From contig CP089281.1 in the NCBI GenBank assembly GCA_023920165.1, forward strand, positions 1,426,001 to 1,490,000: 64,000 nt of DNA, given 5' to 3'. The DNA is from Curvularia clavata. Its lineage: Eukaryota. The notes beneath the pieces were generated by a model. It did no database searches. It was given only the letters and a program-made list of their open reading frames with translations, and had not been told where the DNA came from. Positions 895 through 11,749 of the stretch are shown piece after piece. The first letter of the stretch is position 1. The number at the start of each line of letters is the position of its first letter. The position numbers and the translations under genes are program-made.

Positions 895-3743
895 TTAAAC
901 GGGGCTCGTCTGGTCGCCCTGGCAGCTTCCTGTAGCCGTACCACACCTCAAATGCAAGTCATCTGAAGAACCACCAATCCAAACCCCATAGTCGCCGTCA
1001 ACAGCAGGAATCACCCAGTTCTGCTCTACAACATCCCAGATGCTCAGGTCCTTGCGTGTCAGTCGCAGCTTCAACGTCTGGCTGGCGCCGGCGGCAAGCG
1101 ACGATGTCTTTGCAAAGTCTCGTAGCTGGATGATAGGCGTATCGACTGTGCTCTGGCCGGGGAACTGCAAGTAGAGCTGCGCGACCGCCTTGCCAGCACG
1201 GTTACCAGTGTTGGTCACCTTGACAGAAACGTCGTATGCCACATCAAAGAGAGCAGGGTTGCCACCTTGAGCACCGCCTGCCGCTGGGCCAGCCTTTTGC
1301 ACATTGGAGTAGCCGGCAGGGTAGGGATAGGTCGAAGTAGAGTTTCCAATCTTCGCAGCAGCGTCGGCATCGTTCTTGTCAAGCCACGAGTACAAGTAGC
1401 GCCAGATGCGGTTGAAGTTGTCTGGCCAATAAGCCTCTGAAGCAGGCGGGATTGCAGTTGAATAGGATGGCGTCGAGCCCTTTGCTGGGCGTGTCGGAGG
1501 CGTCCTGCTGAGTGGCGTCACAGGTGTTATGGTTGCGTCGGAGAAGGAAAAGGTCGTGTAGCTGAGACCGTGGCCAAAGGCATAGCGGGGTGTCACGTTG
1601 GCCTTGTGGAAGTGGCGATAATCAATGTAGAGACCCTCTGTGAACGTATCCTGAGGCTGGCCAAGCTGGTATCCTACAAGATTCACAGAGTTGGGGTAGT
1701 CAGACTCGGCCATAGGGAGGGTGTAAGGCAAGTGGCCAGATGGAGAGACGTCGCCGTATAGAACCTGCATCAAGGAGTTTCCTGCTTCTTGGCCAGGCAG
1801 ATGGGCAAAGACGACTGCCTTGACCGAAGGCAGATCATGCCATTCGTTCATGAGGATGGGACCAACAGTGTGTACTACCACGACAACGTTTGAGTACTTG
1901 GCAGCAACGTCCTTGACGAGCTTGTCACCGTTGTGCCACAGGTTCAAGTTGGCGGAAGTACGATCTCCTGGGTTACCCTCGACCGTGATGTAGTTTTCTC
2001 CCGAGTCGGCGGTAACAAAGACAACTGCAGTGTCGTTTGGAGATGGGTTCGAATTACCCGGGAAAGAGTCGGTGTTGAAGAACTGATAGTTGGCACCGCG
2101 AGCCTTGAAGCCATCAATGGGCGAGTCCATGTATGGGTAGCGAGCGCTGCCACTTCCCCAGCCCATTCCCAAAGTGCCCTTGTTACAGCCCTGGTCAGCA
2201 CACGAGTTGATACCGTCGGGGTTCTTTTCGGCGTCGGTTCCGAAGATCTTGAGAGTGGCATTTGCGCTGAGTGGCAGGATGTTGCCCTGGTTCTTCAGCA
2301 ACGTAATGGCGTCTCGGGCTACCTCGCGTGCGACTTCGGCGTGGTTGCCCTGGACATCGACAAATTCGTTCACCACACCCGATGGCGAGATGAGTGCTCC
2401 AGGGTAGAGCGGGCCCTCGGCATTCTGGGTATTGGTGTCGAAGTTGGGCCTGGGATAGTTTTGGTCCTGGCCCATTTTGAAGTAGGTGGCTAGAACGCGT
2501 GTCACGGCATCGTCCAAGCGGTCCACGGGAACTGAGCCGTTAAGCACAGATCGAGTTTGCTCATACATCCAGTATGAGTTTCCGAGAACAAGAGGGATGT
2601 CATTGCGGTCTCCAGGCATAGACATATCCAAGCCGGCAAGGGTTGAGCTAACACCAGAGATTTGGGCTAGCCAGTCCGACATGACAAAGCCTTGGAAACC
2701 AAGCTCATCTTTCAAGATTCCATTAATCAAATAACTGTTTTGCGCGCACGCGCTTCCGTTGACGGCATTGTAGGCAATCATTACTGAGCCAACACCGGAA
2801 CGCACACCTAGTAGATATGTTAGCCTCGCTGCGCCTTGTCTTACTCGTTACGTATCATTGTCGCCGTTTTATCAAAAGAAGGGGAGTAATATACGCATAT
2901 CGGCCATTCTCGAGGGAAATGAGTTTCGGCTTACCTTCTGCGAACGGCCAGAGATAGAGCTCGTGAAGGGTACGGTCATCGACATTCGATGAAATACCTG
3001 GCTTCACAATGTTCCACATACGGTACATTTCTTGCTCATTCGCAATCAAATGCTTAATCGTGGCAATGACGCCAGTGCTCTGGATGCCTTCTACAGACAG
3101 CGCACCTCCGAAAGCCTGAAGAACCGGGTCTGACCCGAAACCTTCCCAGTCTGGAGCAATTGTAAGCGATTTGACACTGAGAAACATCTTGTTCGAGATA
3201 CATACTTCTGCCGCCTCGTGGCTTGCGTCCGAGAGGACCAACACTCGGTCCCAAATGGATGTTAACGCCTTTACCGCGGAATTCCTCGCCTATCGCCACG
3301 GCACGTCGGTACATGAGATCTTTGTCCCACGTAGCACCGACTGTGATACCTGGTGGGAAAGCAGTGTTGTGGTCGGTATTTCTTACGCCCAAGGGTCCAT
3401 CTTGCAAGCAGAGCTGAGGAATACCGACTCTCAAGGCGCTGCCAGTGTTTCCAACGCAGCGACCCATAAAGATTCCTGTTCCAGCCGTCATGTTTGTCTT
3501 CTCGGCGAGTGTCATGTTGGAGACAAGAAGAGACGCTTTTCGGTAACTCTCGGCCCAGTCTGATACCCATCCCCCATGAGGTGCTTTTTCGAACGTTAGT
3601 ATCCCGAACTAGAAAATTGGACTCTTGAACAACGTACCTGGGTAGTAGGGCGGTGCGACGTATCCTTGTGGCACAGGATCGCGAGGCTGAATAGCAGCAC
3701 CTGACGCGAGGCCAGAAAGTGACAAGAGAAGAAGGGAGGCCAT
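895..3743 (-). CDS. BGL1: Secreted GH3 beta-glucosidase (multi-exon); MAT-flanking BGL1-type gene
   Basis: Signal peptide [21 protein letters not shown] from ATG 3743. GH3 motifs [11 protein letters not shown], [27 protein letters not shown] (nucleophile Asp) and [10 protein letters not shown]. First intron 3584-3637, further introns near 3.15-3.2 kb and 2.8-2.93 kb. Confidence 0.95.
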
Positions 3744-5747
3744 GATGGAAGAACGACCTGTTGTAACAAAAGCGTACGGCTCCAGTCACAAGGCGTTCAG
3801 ATGTCTATTGGTTTGGTACAATGTACGAACCAAAGGTCAATCACAAGCAACCCTCGACGATACCGTGGACGACACTCCGAGTCACTTTGAACGGGCGAAC
3901 ATGACCTCTGTATATAGAACCCCGCAACACCATGTCTGCGTGTATGTCGGCGTACTACCAAGGCAAAGCGTGCGCTAGCTATGGGGCTATGAAATAGTGA
4001 TGGACATGCACGTTACGCGAACGACGTATGCAGACATATGACCGAGGACGATTATCACGTATACCGGGGTCGAGATTGGGCCGGATAAAGATCGGTTTGT
4101 TCACACTTGAAAGCGGCTGACAGGGGTGGAGACGTCGCGCGCAACCTCGAAGTACGAACGAGGCATGTGAACAGGACAAAATGTACGAATGACGGTCAGA
4201 ACACGACTGCTGTATTTTCTTCTGAAATATGCTTTTCGTGTGTACACGTGTGAGTCGATCCGATGCCGCGAAACAACCAAGCTCGCTTCTGGGTGTGGCG
4301 CTTCAGCACTTGCTTTAACTCTGATCGCGGCTGGTCTTTGTGTCACACGACATTCTGATCTGCCCGTCCGTATGACTTGTAGCCGTGTGTAAACTTCTTT
4401 TTCCATCCTTGTCGTATCGAAGTGCCTGAATATGTCAACATGCTCCGCTGGCTGTCAAACGCTATTTGGTGGAAATTGTAATCGTGTCTTTACCATGCGG
4501 TTGGTCTCTGCAAGCCAGCCACCAGGACGCCACGTACCAGAACCCATACCGTACCTGATAATCGGCTTTCAGCTGTGCTCCTGCTTGGGTCACTTGCATG
4601 CGTCCACGGCAAGCCCGGAATGCCATGCCATAAGGTCTGGATACCCGATCGGCGGAATTGCGGGGTGTGCACGAGTAAGGAAAGATAGACAGGCACAGAA
4701 ACGGGTACCAGGCTCGGTTGTAGTTAGCGTTACGTGGGTTTCCCCTTTCTGCGCACGCCACACCCATTCTGTGTCTTCTCCGTTGCGATCCATCCGCATT
4801 TCGGATGCGCATGACCTCATTTTCAATTATCTGTATATTATGCATGTAGGGTGTTCTGGGGTCAAGTATCGAAACCTGTCTTAGCATCATATATGTACAA
4901 GTCAATATGTACACTAGTACTCCGTAGTGTGTCTGCTACAGCGTCTATCGCGAACATATGGATACGCATACGTGCTCGATACGGTGCCAAGGGGTCGGAT
5001 CTCTTCAGCCTTGCAGCGGTTACGCGCCAGGATTCTGGTGACTACTGTGTGAAAGGCGTAACCTCTACCCACGTGTGGATATATTCAAGAGTCTACGGAA
5101 CTTCGTGCGGTACAGAGTAGGCATCTCCAGGCGTCTTCCATAAACTATCTGTGAACCCACAACGGCAACTGTTCAGTTCATTGTAAGAGGCGGCCACGAA
5201 CAGGCAGCTGAGGCCTGGGCGGGCGCCAGATTGCAAGACGTAGCTCAGTAATGCGTGGTTTCAATGATGAGTGTCGCAAGTAGAATCGTGCCAGCCGTTC
5301 ATACCTCGAACAGAGTTCATTGCGCGTGCATTGCTCGGCACTGCAAGGCCTTCCTTGTATAGCTCCAGGCACATGATGCCATCGTCAAAGAGACATTAAC
5401 GCTTACAGAGTCATTGTGCACATCAAGTCATTCTTTGACAAGGATCGCAGCTAGGTACACGCGACGCAAGCGACACAGCTTCACGAACCCAGTGACACAT
5501 GACACGAGACACAGGGCACCTCAAGAGTAGCAGTTGGCATAAGAGGATAGTCAAAACACCATACGCATATTCGTCTCTAGAGGCCAATCACCACACTTGA
5601 CAGGCATGCTCACGGGTTGGGAGTCACAGCATCGAGGGCACACCCTGAGTGGAAGACAAGCAACCCACATCACAGCAGCAGAGAAAAGAGTATATGGGGC
5701 ACAGGATGGAATTGTTTGATCACTATCTACTTTCAGACGAGGGGCGA

Positions 5748-5924
5748 CCTGTCCACGCTGGTACAAGCAACCAGAAAGCTTATGCCATGATCCTAAACCT
5801 CTCCACACTGGTACGAACAACCAGAAGACCCATGCCGTGATGATCGTCTGCTCTCAGACTTGAAAAACCCTATGAAAATCCTCCGCACTGGTACATGTTA
5901 CCAGAAGGCCGATGCCATGATCCT
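5748..5924. repeat. Three dispersed ~43-bp direct repeats with an internal inverted core, downstream of MAT1-1-1
   Basis: Copies start at 5751, 5801 and 5881 and share TCC-R-C-R-CTGGTAC-N5-ACCAGAA-RR-C-NN-ATGCC-R-TGAT. Confidence 0.9.
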
Positions 5925-6138
5925 GATTACAAAACAAAAAGGGGAATAGTGCTCTTCAACCTACAAGACCCTCCACCGTTGACGTCGTCCTTTTGGGGTA
6001 CGTTTGAACGTGAGCCCGATACGATGTTAGAGAAGCTTGAAGATGCTGTTCCCACTACCACGAGTGCTCAACGCCGAGTGAATGTAGATGGGGAATGACC
6101 TTGAGAGGCTCCGCTAGCATCCGTATGCAAGTGGGTCC

Positions 6139-7277
6139 TTAGGCATGTGCGACATCGTCGAATACAGGAAGGGTGACATCTTCGTTGGCACCGAAACGGA
6201 ATGCATCGTAGTCGATAAGCTCTGGCATATCGGTAACGAAGTTGTTCATTCCGAGGTATGCCTTGCCGCTATCGACAAAAAGGTGGTTAGACAGTGGTGC
6301 ACCATCTGGGTATCCGACATTGGCCTGTTCCATGGCCATATGCTCAAAGATGAGGTTGTTCACACCCTCGTAGAACGGCGTGAAGTCAAAATCGGGAAGA
6401 GGGTCAGGGCCAACGAGAGTAGCGACGGCCTGTACGTGAGCCATCTCGCGATGGAGGGTTTCCTGAAACTCCCTAGCCGAGGATGACTCAGCTATGGACA
6501 TGTTATGTTCCTCCGGAAGAGCCTGATCTTCCTCCAGGAGAGCCTGATCTTCCTCCGAAGCAGGCAAGTTGGCCGACTGTCCAAGGAAGGTTGGCGAGGT
6601 GTCATTAGTAATGGGAATGTACGCCGGAGCATATCCCGCTTTGCGGACAAAGGTGATGATGTCCTCGACAGAGAGTGCTAGATCAATGTAACTACTGCCG
6701 ACAGATGCAGACTTGGAATCGATACTTTCGACAAGTGTGGGATCTCCCTCTTGATTGACAACGAGGATCCATCCATGCAAGTCCAGGTAGGAGGCAGGGT
6801 CGGGCAGCTTGAGGTGAGGACAGATGAGGTTGAAGAACGCGTCAAGCGGAGCTTGGTCTTTGCCGACTTGATCACGAATGTTGGACCATGCCCTTGCCAT
6901 CAAGGACCAAAGGGACTTGTTTGGGTCACGATCCCATAGAAGGCTGATCAGGTTCGAAAGCTTCTTCATAGGCCACTGTTTGAAGGCTGGAATCGTGATG
7001 TAGTAGCCTGTAATGTTCCAATTAGCTCATGCTGCATGTAGATGTACAATACAGACTTACAGCGAAATCCAACGAAGGCGTTGAGGGCTTTCTTCGCTCT
7101 GGGCGGAACAGTGGGCTCGACGCTCTTGGCAGGGTTGATTGTGAGCAGTTTGGCTGTAAAGGCAAACTGAGCAGCTGGTTCTTTGATGCAGCGCATCAAC
7201 TGTAGCATCTGAGCACTAGTACGAGTAGCCAGAAATCGGGCAATCTCATCCTCGGTAGGCTCTCTTGCTGAATCCAT
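6139..7277 (-). CDS. MAT1-1-1: Mating-type protein MAT1-1-1 (alpha-box), ~361 aa; exons 7277-7061 and 7007-6139
   Basis: Alpha-box KKALNAFVGFRC|YYITIPAFKQWPMKKLSNLISLLWDRDPNKSLWSLMARAWS. A 53-bp GT..AG intron (7008-7060) splits the Cys codon, the usual alpha-box position. Flanked by ORF1/GAP1 and BGL1. Confidence 0.97.
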
Positions 7278-7397
7278 AGCGGATGATTGGTGAAAGAAGT
7301 TGTCGTTGATGTTTGGGCACAGGTTGGGAAAGCCACGAGTGGTTGAGGGTAGGGAAGTGTTTGTGGAGTGGACAAAACAAACTGGGCAGGTCGAGGG

Positions 7398-7403
7398 TTT
7401 ATA
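7398..7403 (-). promoter_or_regulatory. Candidate TATA box of MAT1-1-1
   Basis: TATAAA on the minus strand ~120 bp upstream of the ATG. A CCAAT (minus strand) lies at 7774-7778. Confidence 0.4.
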
Positions 7404-8385
7404 TCTGTGGGAGCTACTCCGTTTGCCTGCTGGCGCCAAGCCTTCTCTCGGGCAAAAGTCTCGCTCTCGCTGGGAGCAAACGGACAGCTCTCCTCGTTCA
7501 CCTCGAGATGTTCGCCTGGAGCCCTCTGGCAAACACGTGGGGCGGGGGAGGAGTGGGTCCGCAGTCTGCTGGGAGGCTGTCGTCTGGGGTAACCACGTGG
7601 CTAGGCGAGCCGATAACGGGCTGGATTCGAGGAATGAGGGTGAGTTGTGGGGCTAGGAGCGTTTGCTGCATGAAACGGCCGTTGGTGCCTGGGCAGGATG
7701 GTCAGGCTTAGTACGGTGGGAGTGGTGAGAGTGAGTAAAGGGCCACGAGCTGGCAAAGGCGGTGCCTCACCTCATTGGCCAGAAAAAAGAGCGTATTTAT
7801 GCAAATTGGGATTCACTGCTGGTGATGTGTGAGTCGTGGCATGGTGAGATGTGTGGCAAGTGACGTAGGCACTAGGCCTTGTGGGATACAGAAGAAAGGA
7901 GAGGAATGCGAGCCACAAGCTCTGAAGAAGTTGGCTTTTGATCCAAGACTTGATATATGAGACAAAGGAAATAGGAAGGCGCCACAGGCCGATTAGTACT
8001 AAGACAAGTCGATGTGATTTGGCGCTCCACGTGCGGCAGCCACTTCAGTTCAGGAAGGTACCCCCTTGCATAAGAGACATCACTGAGTGGCGAGTTTGCA
8101 CGAATTCCTGCAGTCCGATTTGATGCCTGTGCATGTATTTCAAGCAAAGACTACATGGCTTGCCAGTGTCTGGCGTGATGTGGTGGTGGCGGGAACGGCT
8201 GGACCCGGTAGACATACTTCAGGACAGGTACGGCGCAGAACACCGTCTTGTACTAGGCGCCTTGCACAGGCAAGCCCTGCGAGGGACACTCAGCTGAAGC
8301 ATGTAGCTGCTATGAGACACATGGAAACATAGCTTCAGACTACACAATATACGCATTTTCGTACCTGTGGTCAACAAGAAAACCG

Positions 8386-9274
8386 TTACGCTGTGCCGTT
8401 TGGCAGAGAACCTTGGGTGCTGTCTGACAGCCTCCAATCTCGCACTTGACCTTTCCAATCTGCAATCCTTCCGTCACGAATCTTGACAATCACCACTCTG
8501 ACCTCTGCTCCGTCCAGATAGCATTGGGCCCCTCCTTCGCCCTCGCCTGGGCCCCCTTCGGTTGCAGCTCTACCACCCCACAATCCCTCTCCACCTGGGG
8601 ATGTCGAGTAGACATCCTCTGCGCCGTCACCAAAGGTATTGTTAGCTACATGTTGAGCCTTGTACCATTTCTCTTCTTCTGAGCCAGATGGAATTAGCTC
8701 GGCAGTGCCATTGATGGTGGTGCTGATTCGACTCAACGATGCCGTGTTCATGCCGAGGAGAAGCTCGGCCAGTGATCCAGAGCGAGGCGCGGGCCGGGTT
8801 GGCGATGGCGAGCGGCCTGGCTGGTTGAGAGTGGGCGGTCGATGAGATATCCAGTCATGCACCAAGAGAGACACAAGTGAGTTGGACTCGAGGTTTTGAG
8901 TCTTGCGGGATGATGCAGGTGTTGTCAGGATGATGATCGGACTTGAAGAGTAAGGCGTGCTAGGCAGATAGGTGTAGTTCATGAGCGAGACATGGGGAAT
9001 ATTTTCCGAGCATGTTGCAAGATGAAGCTATTACATCCATCAGAATCAATTCGCAACAAGAAAGCGATGAAATGCACAAGAGCACGTGACACCAAGACAA
9101 ATAACCATTCGAGACAAGATAAGGGGATGACGGGAGGGAAATGGGAGAGTGTAGTCTATGCTGAAACGTATTTGACGAGGGAAAGATAGGACGAGAATGC
9201 TTGCAAGATGGAATACTCACAAAACGGGCATTCTGCAAGCAGGTTATCACTTCCTCAGGCAAGCCGTGGGACAT
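8386..9274 (-). CDS. Pyridoxamine 5'-phosphate oxidase-like protein (MAT-adjacent 'ORF1', YLR456W-like); intron 9028-9220
   Basis: Spliced N-terminus MSHGLPEEVITCLQNARF|LHLATCSENIPHVSLMNYTY, then SRKTQNLESNSLVSLLVHDW and GRIADWKG. Sits next to MAT as in Pleosporales. Confidence 0.9.
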
Positions 9275-9505: not shown

Positions 9506-11749
9506 ATGGCTTCTGAGTCCGCGCCTACACTTCCGCCCATGGAGAGCACCGATACCTTCAATCCAGAATTCAACAGCGCATCTGACCCCCCAAAAGATGG
9601 CGCCCTTACCTCTCCGACCGACGAGCCCGCTCCGACGTCGCCCGACCAGCGGACTGCTCCCCAGGATGCGCATACCCAACAGCGCGTCCACGAGATCCTG
9701 CACTCGGATGTAGGCGTTGCGACACTGCTGAATCGCCTCAAGGCCAGCATTGCGAGCGCCAGGGTCAGTGGACATGTACTTGAATTATGCAGCACACCCC
9801 GCTCACATACGTGGTAGGACTTCGCCGGCTTCTTGAAGCGCCGAGGCGCCCTCGAGGAAGAGCACGCAGGCAGCCTCAAGAAACTCAGTCGCATGACCCT
9901 CGACGGCGTGCGCAAGCCTGATACACGACACGAGAGCTACCAGACGCAGTTTGAGCAGGTCCTCCATGCCAACGAGCGCATCGCCGACAATGGCACCCAA
10001 TTCGGGCTCGCCCTGCACGCCATGCATGAGAACCTGTTGCAGCTGGCCAACAAGATGGATGGCAACCGCAAGACCTGGAAGCAGCAGGGACTGTCTGCCG
10101 AGAACAAGGTACAAGAGGCTGAACGGCTGGCGGAGAAGGCAAAGGCCAAGTACGACCAGCTAGCTGAAGACCTCGACCGTGTCAAGACGGGTGACACCGG
10201 CGCAGGCAGGAAGTTTGGTTTGAAAGGACCCAAGTCAGCCGCGCAGCACGAGGAGGATCTCCAGCGTAAGACACAGGCGGCAGACCAGGATTATTCCAGC
10301 AAAGTGCAGACAGCGCAGGCCTTGCGCAAGGAGCTTGTGGCGACTCTGCGACCCCAGGCCGTCTCTGCACTCCTAGACCTGATTAAAGAAACCGATGCCG
10401 CACTCACCATGGAGATGCAGAAATTTGGTAAGTCTGTCACCTCTGAATCAAAGACCCAGCTCACACAGTCTTAGCCTCGTTCAACGAGAAGCTTGTTGTC
10501 AACAATGGCCAGGTTGTCACACCACAGCCGCTCAAGGGCAGCACTGCTCACCCTCCACCCAGCATCAACCAGCTCATCTACCAGATCAACAACGAGCGAG
10601 ACTTTGAGGAGTTCGTCTTGAGCCAGGGATCCAAGGGGCCCTTGTCCAAATCGGAGCTTCAATATGTCAAGCATCCAACCCAGTCGCAGACACGGTCTCA
10701 TCCAACAGCACCAGCTGGAAACGGTCGTCCTTCGATGCAGCTGCAGAGCCAGCCGCCACCACCGACCTTCTCCATGCCGCAATCAGAGCCCAACCCTACT
10801 TCGCCCTTGCAGCCGACCATTACACATGTCGAATCCTCACAGCAGCCTTCATTTGGGTCTTTTTCACAGCCACCGCCTCTGTCGATGCCACACCAAGCAC
10901 CGCAGCCTCAGCCGGCGCCATATCCCACTGGCCCGTACTCGCCCACAACCCAAAAAGCCTACCCACCAGCCGATTATCCGCGTGGACCGGCCGGTCAGGC
11001 TACAGCACAGCAGACTAGCGGCGTGCTCTACAACAGCAGCCAACCTCCCGTCAATCCTGTCTTTGGTGTCACCCTGGAAGAACTGTTCCGGCGAGACGGC
11101 TCGCCTGTACCCATGGTGGTCTACCAATGCATTCAAGCGGTAGATCTCTATGGATTGGAGGTAGAGGGAATCTATCGCATTCCTGGAACCTCATCGCATA
11201 TCCAGCAGATGAAGGCTTTGTTTGACAGTGGTATGTTACATCAATAAGTTGCGTTGGTTGGTCAAGCTAACACGGAGCAGATGCGTCCCAGGTTGATTTC
11301 CGGAATCCAGAATCCTTCCAGCATGACGTGAATAGTGTCGCGGGCTTGCTGAAACAGTTCTTCCGGGAGCTTCCTGACCCACTTCTCACGCGCGAATTTT
11401 ACGGCAAGTACATCGACGCGGCACGAATCGACGACGATACGATGCGCCGAGACTCGATGCATGCTCTTATCAACGCTTTGCCTGACCCGAACTACGCGAC
11501 GCTCCGAGCGCTTGTTTTGCATTTGCACCGGGTGCAACAATCCTCAGAGATTAATCGCATGAGCACTGCGAACCTGGCCATTTGTTGGGCGTAAGTAAGA
11601 CCAGTCGAACCATGCCACGTCAACTAACTGTATACAGACCGTCTATCATGGGCCCTCACAAAGGCAGCAACATGGCTGATGCCGGACTGCAAGCCCGTGT
11701 CATCATCACCATCTTGGACAATGCACTTCAGATATTCGACGAGGACTAA
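9506..11749 (+). CDS. GAP1: F-BAR/FCH plus RhoGAP protein (MAT-linked GAP1; Rgd1-like), multi-exon
   Basis: FCH-like FLKRRGALEEEHAGSLKKL and a coiled coil. RhoGAP motifs VFGVTL..VPMVVYQCI..GLEVEGIYRIPG, AGLLKQFFRELPDPL and NRMSTANLAICW. Stop TAA 11747-11749. Confidence 0.93.

Follow-up and report, generated by a model that had tools for sequence, protein, structure and literature searches.

Cochliobolus-type MAT genes are said to need their 3′ untranslated regions (3′UTRs) for full fertility. Multimerised hairpin elements within 3′UTRs are exemplified by the Smaug/Vts1 recognition elements and by the ASH1 localisation elements. In C. heterostrophus the MAT 3′UTRs are said to control fertility, to go by the title of Wirsel et al. 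1998 (Mol Gen Genet 259:272). Multiple MAT transcripts have been reported for the same species (Leubner-Metzger et al. 1997, as cited in PMC3574095). Condon et al. 2013 (PMC3554632) describe a conserved order of genes around MAT and, between Setosphaeria and Cochliobolus, a high variability of about 500 bp 5′ and about 3 kb 3′ of MAT. In the portions of the literature available to our search, no repeat or hairpin is described for a Pleosporales MAT UTR, and no defined element was found in print for the MAT 3′UTR fertility requirement.

Here we have analysed a 64-kb stretch of Curvularia clavata DNA (hereafter the window, to which all positions refer), in which a repeated sequence lies in the 3′ flank of the mating-type gene MAT1-1-1. 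An initial annotation of the window had noted that non-idiomorphic MAT 3′UTR sequence is needed for full fertility in C. heterostrophus, and this agrees with the work of Wirsel et al. 1998 at the level of its title only.

RESULTS

The MAT1-1-1 gene and its neighbourhood

MAT1-1-1 is encoded on the minus strand as two exons, in a neighbourhood that contains three other genes or ORFs with Pfam matches:

895-2847, minus strand: GH3 beta-glucosidase (Pfam)
6139-7007, minus strand: MAT1-1-1 exon 2, including the TAA stop codon at 6141-6139
7008-7060, minus strand: MAT1-1-1 intron of 53 nt (GT..AG), inside the alpha-box
7061-7277, minus strand: MAT1-1-1 exon 1, with the ATG at 7277-7275
8386-9027, minus strand: PNPOx-like ORF (Pfam)
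9818-11594, plus strand: gene with FCH and RhoGAP domains (Pfam)

The spliced MAT1-1-1 product has 361 aa, the same length as the database protein P0002 (Mating-type protein MAT-1 of Curvularia clavata), with which 98% of the exon-2 query aligns at 100% identity. The exon-2 search returned 32 proteins at E ≤ 0.001, the next matches being those of Cochliobolus cymbopogonis (79%), C. ellisii (68%), C. lunatus (65%) and Bipolaris maydis (47%), and Pfam identified a MATalpha_HMGbox over MAT1-1-1. The coding ORFs of the beta-glucosidase extend to about 3600 on the minus strand. Inside MAT1-1-1 exon 2, a 21-nt tandem repeat at 6508-6557 (2.4 copies, 89% matches) gives rise to an in-frame duplicated heptapeptide, EEDQALL/EEDQALP, in the acidic C-terminal half of the protein.

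A three-copy direct repeat downstream of MAT1-1-1

The repeated sequence is a 45-nt direct repeat present three times, at 5747-5791, 5797-5841 and 5877-5921, all copies belonging to one repeat family. Extended to 50-nt units, the array is composed as follows:

5747-5796, minus strand: repeat copy 1, with its 45-nt core at 5747-5791 and a 5-nt tail; the copy closest to the mRNA 3′ end
5797-5846, minus strand: repeat copy 2, with its core at 5797-5841; its box is ATGCCGTGAT
5847-5876, minus strand: spacer of 30 nt, unrelated to the repeat unit, which shifts copy 3 off the 50-nt period
5877-5926, minus strand: repeat copy 3, with its core at 5877-5921; its stem is extendable to 6 bp

Since the stop codon of MAT1-1-1 is the minus-strand TAA at 6141-6139, the array is located 218-392 nt beyond it, along the strand that carries the gene. 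The initial annotation had described three copies 215-390 nt past the stop and spaced by 50 and 80 nt. Its sequence strings (starting at 5751, 5801 and 5881), its coordinates and its spacings were right, and its observation of a triplicated repeat is confirmed.

Identity to copy 1 is 80% for copy 2 and 73% for copy 3. The pairwise comparisons among the copies gave 36, 33 and 33 identities in 45 positions. TRF reported copies 1 and 2 as a period-50 array (1.9 copies, 80% matches, score 127), which had the top score and the sole period above 22 among the seven rows obtained for the 64 kb. The copies stand head to tail and derive from one unit, as in a tandem, minisatellite-like duplication. Three blocks, CTGGTAC, ACCAGAA and ATGCCRTGAT (the last hereafter the box), are common to all three copies.

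We have then searched the window for further copies. The composite motif CTGGT-N7-ACCAG-N7-ATGCCRTGAT, with up to two mismatches allowed, matched three times, always within the array, and matched in none of 100 shuffled sequences. A profile HMM built from the copies retrieved the three array copies only (E of 3e-15 to 6e-14). Thus, neither motif nor profile searches found a further array copy near another gene in the 64 kb. The box taken alone, with up to one mismatch, matched 15 times against 8.35 expected, the three exact matches being those of the array. The next-best profile match (E = 0.052) falls at 7212-7237, within MAT1-1-1 exon 1 and in the interior of the idiomorph, and is probably due to chance.

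A short unit with an inverted core and several copies could also derive from a dispersed repeat or miniature transposon, of which a piece landed, or was copied, in the MAT flank. We consider this origin quite improbable. The window holds no further copy, and no convincing terminal inverted repeats flank the array, the best pair touching it being 72% complementary and 700 nt apart. A scan of one metagenome matched the motif a single time (L001, 3001-3034), by chance and within a bacterial ORF of 264 aa that belongs to a contig of 202 kb.

The array lies in a 3′UTR shared by both mating types

The contigs of four sequencing runs (X3, X7, X14 and X15) were aligned to positions 4800-8400. X3 and X7 are DNA-like, whereas X14 and X15, which come from two studies under one species label, had been labelled RNA only as a guess, so that their RNA status is argued here from contig features. 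We have treated them as transcript assemblies because they contain a canonical spliced joint, their depth is very uneven (2.8, 42.9 and 146.7 among X14 contigs) and they have contigs ending at a splice site, with stops precisely at 7690 in two studies. Three features of the locus were delimited with these contigs:

5695-6138, minus strand: 3′UTR of the MAT transcription unit (contig ends at 5695 in X14 and at 5760 in X15)
6132-7289, no strand assigned: MAT1-1 idiomorph of 1158 bp (from the X14/X15 contig joint)
7689-7770, minus strand: 5′UTR intron of 82 nt, GT..AG (X14/X15 joint 7687 to 7770, with the cut moved by 1)

On the minus strand, the sequence TACTAAG is found 17 nt before the AG of the 5′UTR intron, and the splice joint was not seen in the DNA-like runs X3 and X7. 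Both X14 and X15 contain spliced as well as read-through contigs at 7689-7770, which suggests alternative or incomplete splicing.

One contig each of X14 (1853 nt) and X15 (1794 nt) followed the window from 7690 to 7290, continued with 1025 other letters and then resumed at 6131, running down to 5695 in X14 and to 5760 in X15. The 1025 letters take the place of 6132-7289 at this joint, and we infer that they represent the opposite idiomorph. The MAT1-1 idiomorph thus delimited starts 12 nt before the ATG and ends 7 nt after the stop, and only the first 7 nt of the MAT 3′UTR (6138-6132) are outside the flank common to both mating types.

Since the contigs with the other idiomorph run through the array, the latter is placed outside the idiomorph, 211-385 nt from its boundary, in the shared distal 3′UTR. 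The alignment showed the array to be non-idiomorphic. The allele of the opposite mating type has as many copies, spaced in the same way, and is unchanged in length from 5760 to 6131.

The initial annotation had also raised the question of whether the MAT transcript covers 5750-5925. As the array is contained in contigs that carry the spliced 5′UTR intron and the other idiomorph, 5760-5925 is very probably covered, and X14 reaches 5695. The array ends about 50 nt before this point, at which one RNA contig stops. The two contig ends (5695 and 5760) are not the same in X14 and X15 and do not in themselves define a poly(A) site; at 5695 a CA precedes a U-rich stretch, a context compatible with, and at most suggestive of, such a site. 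Farther downstream, between the MAT 3′UTR and the GH3 gene, a 214-nt X14 contig of depth 2.8 covers 5266-5479, and may reflect weak intergenic transcription or DNA carry-over.

Hairpin potential and RNA structure

The position of the array within transcript contigs, together with the 3′UTR role supported by the title of Wirsel et al. 1998, is what would be expected of a multimerised RNA cis-element. Three modules, each consisting of a CUGGU-N7-ACCAG hairpin and a single-stranded AUCAYGGCAU box, would recruit an RNA-binding protein and set the stability, translation or 3′-end use of the MAT mRNA in both mating types. We regard this explanation as possible, if rather unlikely, and have examined the structural evidence that bears on it.

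Folding of the single copies in mRNA sense gave z-scores of -0.15, +1.25 and +0.33 (200 shuffles each), and that of the 449-nt UTR a z-score of +1.21. Hence, neither the single copies nor the whole UTR had an excess of folding stability over shuffled sequences, and this lack of a thermodynamic signal speaks against the RNA element. The CUGGU-N7-ACCAG hairpin was part of the minimum-energy fold of copies 2 and 3 and, also against an RNA element, was absent from that of copy 1. RNAalifold on the three copies predicted a 5-bp hairpin and a 3-bp helix in which none of the eight pairs was compensatory, the five hairpin pairs being uninformative as they never vary. An Rfam scan of 5400-6300 (E ≤ 10) found no family matching the array, its two weak matches both lying outside it. 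The missing compensatory pairs and the missing Rfam family likewise count against an RNA element, as does the finding that no further copies occur near other genes in the 64 kb.

Perfect stems of at least 5 bp with a loop of 3-9 nt are contained in 16% of the 45-mers of the window, so that a stem in the ancestral repeat unit would be unremarkable. The loops vary among the copies (UGCUUGU, UGUUCGU and AACAUGU in mRNA sense). A 5-bp stem with a 7-nt loop also has the format of an anticodon-like substrate for sexual-stage A-to-I editing; we have discarded this candidate because, as judged by eye, the mRNA-sense loops of copies 1 and 2 contain no A.

Pattern of variation among the copies

Of the 45 columns, 16 vary from copy to copy, and these variable columns form clusters (15 runs, permutation P = 0.022). 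None of the ten arm columns varies (P = 0.006), and arms plus box contain one variable column in 20 (P = 1e-4). These three tests are post hoc, the pattern having been picked by eye, and the clustering is nominal. With this reservation, short invariant blocks alternating with variable linkers (the runs and arms tests) are in line with the RNA cis-element.

The kinship among the copies changes along the unit. In columns 1-30, copies 1 and 2 are the closest (26 of 30 identities, against 21 of 30), and in columns 31-50 it is copies 1 and 3 that are the closest (16 of 20, against 11 of 20 and 13 of 20). To judge from the alignment, such a mosaic hints at exchange among the copies.

The array might instead be a relic or live peptide-coding repeat, considering that copies read in register by hand give similar peptides on either strand and that one plus-strand frame yields a P-x-W-Y-x-x-P-E-x-x-C-x-D-like peptide. 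However, the 50- and 80-nt spacing puts the copies in three different frames, and the variable columns are distributed as 5, 8 and 3 by codon phase, with no third-position excess. Moreover, Pfam gave no match for the ORFs that cover the array, and a protein search with the two stop-to-stop ORFs that overlap it (5551-5853 minus and 5844-6098 plus) found no homologues. Based on these observations the coding reading is close to refuted, and we have rejected it as very improbable. The plus-strand boxes at 5782-5790, 5832-5840 and 5912-5920 read ATG-CCR-TGA, a Met-Pro-stop mini-ORF that would be relevant only if there were an antisense transcript.

Differences on the other allele and in relatives

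We have compared the array of the window with that of the contigs carrying the other idiomorph, the MAT flanks of the two alleles being about 4% divergent. The X14 piece (5695-6131) had 19 differences and a 3-nt deletion with respect to the window, and the X15 piece (5760-6131) had 16 differences. The positional analysis included 15 of the 19 and 13 of the 16, and its counts are therefore lower bounds: at least 5 listed differences in the 175 nt of the array versus at least 10 in the 262 nt outside it (Fisher P = 0.79).

Among the five listed in-array differences, four strike columns that are invariant among the copies of the window, and three strike CTGGTAC, one per copy (5759 T>C, 5813 A>G and 5888 C>T; post hoc binomial P = 0.014 for at least three of five within 21 of 175 nt). 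None of the listed differences affects ACCAGAA or ATGCCRTGAT (51 nt), which would be compatible with an RNA cis-element, at a low power (P = 0.18 for none of five). The initial annotation had described the arms, their spacing and the box as invariant. This stands for the three copies of the window, but not for the other allele, where CTGGTAC is changed once in each copy. In mRNA sense, the GUACCAG heptamer is intact in all three copies of the MAT1-1 allele and altered in every copy on the MAT1-2-linked contigs, a further point against the RNA element.

The effect of these changes on the hairpins was worked out by hand in mRNA sense. The copy-1 change converts an A-U into a G-U pair, the copy-2 change falls in the loop, and in copy 3 the change costs the outermost pair of six. 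On the other allele the hairpins could thus survive, with G-U pairing kept in copy 1 and five of six pairs retained in copy 3, which favours the RNA element. Nevertheless, one pair kept and one lost is as expected from random transitions. The proposal of the initial annotation, that the pattern fits selection on a stem-loop better than random decay, found no support: there is no fold signal, no compensatory pair among eight, a comparable stem occurs in 16% of 45-mers, and the CTGGT arm of two of the three copies is not the same in the other allele.

The same arms bear on a DNA-level explanation, in which the palindromic CTGGT-N7-ACCAG and the box would bind a dimeric transcription factor, the cluster acting as a downstream MAT enhancer or as a distal upstream element of the beta-glucosidase gene. 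The palindromic arms are at a fixed spacing in all three copies and the array precedes the GH3 gene by about 2.1 kb; yet one arm is altered in two of three copies on the other allele, and no other copy is found near any gene of the window. To our knowledge, the array contains no known fungal factor motif, and inspection by eye for CreA-like SYGGRG and for HMG-box sites gave nothing consistent across the three copies. We therefore see a site cluster of this kind as improbable.

The differences in the array are not simply tied to the allele, because near-identical X3 contigs over the array have two of the changes (5813 A>G and 5897 G>A) and lack those at 5759 and 5803. Another X3 contig, of 2005 nt, comes from a relative whose identity over 5901-6411 is about 83% (88 of 511 letters differing). 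It aligned to 5658-5743 and again from 5901, with no alignment at 80% likeness across 5744-5900. As both flanks align and the stretch between them does not, divergence of the array in this relative is no lower than that of its flanks, contrary to what an RNA cis-element would lead one to expect. X3 and X7 each have one contig that matches up to 5743 and is then unlike the window. X7 has no cover over 5768-5888, a hole that proves nothing by itself. The likeness of the related contigs to the window stops exactly at the left edge of the array (5743/5744) and resumes within the second half of copy 3 (5900/5901). A lineage-specific rearrangement may have had its breakpoints at the edges of the array.

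DISCUSSION

The explanation that we favour, tentatively and with somewhat less than even confidence, is that the array is a local duplication under at most weak constraint. A segment of about 45-50 nt would have been tandemly triplicated on the spot, presumably by slippage or unequal exchange in a fast-evolving flank. The resulting array would lie in the distal 3′UTR common to the MAT1-1-1 and MAT1-2-1 transcripts, and would be a passenger of the MAT mRNAs, its sequence being constrained weakly at most. Its 5-bp inverted core would be a legacy of the unit that was duplicated, instead of a hairpin kept in tune.

Several lines of evidence led us to prefer local duplication. The copies are arranged head to tail with a period of 50 nt, the third being displaced by 30 nt; their kinship is mosaic, the stem is commonplace, and there is neither a fold signal nor a compensatory pair among eight nor an Rfam match. 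In addition, the allele differences are equally dense inside and outside the array and strike the "invariant" CTGGTAC in every copy. Finally, the array did not align in the relative of about 83% identity, and the flank is reported to be highly variable.

Other observations count against local duplication. The variable columns are clustered, with invariant arms and box (post hoc), and ACCAGAA and ATGCCRTGAT are without a listed allele difference (low power). Copy number and spacing are kept on both alleles despite the divergence of about 4%, and the array is the only long-period tandem repeat in the 64 kb. The title of Wirsel et al. 1998 adds that the counterpart UTR in C. heterostrophus controls fertility. 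Taken together, the evidence for selection on the array is weak. The repeat is real and very probably transcribed, local duplication would suffice so far to explain it, and a function is a candidate only.

A more far-reaching idea, which we put forward as a long shot, is that the array is a multimerised bipartite RNA element (5-bp stem and 7-nt loop plus AUCAYGGCAU box) that forms the basis of the unexplained 3′UTR fertility requirement at Cochliobolus/Curvularia MAT loci. It would be read by a sexual-stage RNA-binding protein and may be tuned differently on each allele, such tuning being possible because the flank is linked to the idiomorph. If this were true, mating-type-specific information would extend beyond the idiomorph.

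What is new here is a discrete, deletable three-copy module, placed in the shared UTR of a Curvularia MAT locus of which the idiomorph borders and a 5′UTR intron have been mapped, and which offers a concrete target for comparative and deletion tests. Should the blocks prove conserved, the module would be a first candidate post-transcriptional control element of fungal mating-type genes; should they not, the array would be an ordinary duplication in a fast-evolving flank.

The array can be set against four known systems. Miniature inverted-repeat transposons share with it a short multi-copy unit with an inverted core, but the array has no other copies in the 64 kb, no terminal inverted repeats and no target duplications. 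The Smaug/Vts1 and ASH1 elements resemble the array in that several short stem-loops, each with an adjacent conserved sequence, are present per 3′UTR. They differ from it because the array conserves the stem while the loop varies, and has no CNGGN-type loop, covariation or Rfam match.

The MAT 3′UTR of C. heterostrophus belongs to the same fungal family and to a locus of the same layout (GH3 gene, MAT, PNPOx-like ORF and RhoGAP gene), with one gene per idiomorph and a UTR in the flank common to both mating types; the likeness is one of locus layout and paper title. With respect to minisatellite-like duplications, the array stands apart in that its third copy is displaced by a 30-nt unrelated spacer, and in that its copies, though old and by now 20-27% different, have preserved three short blocks of identity and are equal in number on both alleles. 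It resembles them in its period-50 head-to-tail copies, in its mosaic kinship and in strain differences that are as dense as those of the flanks.
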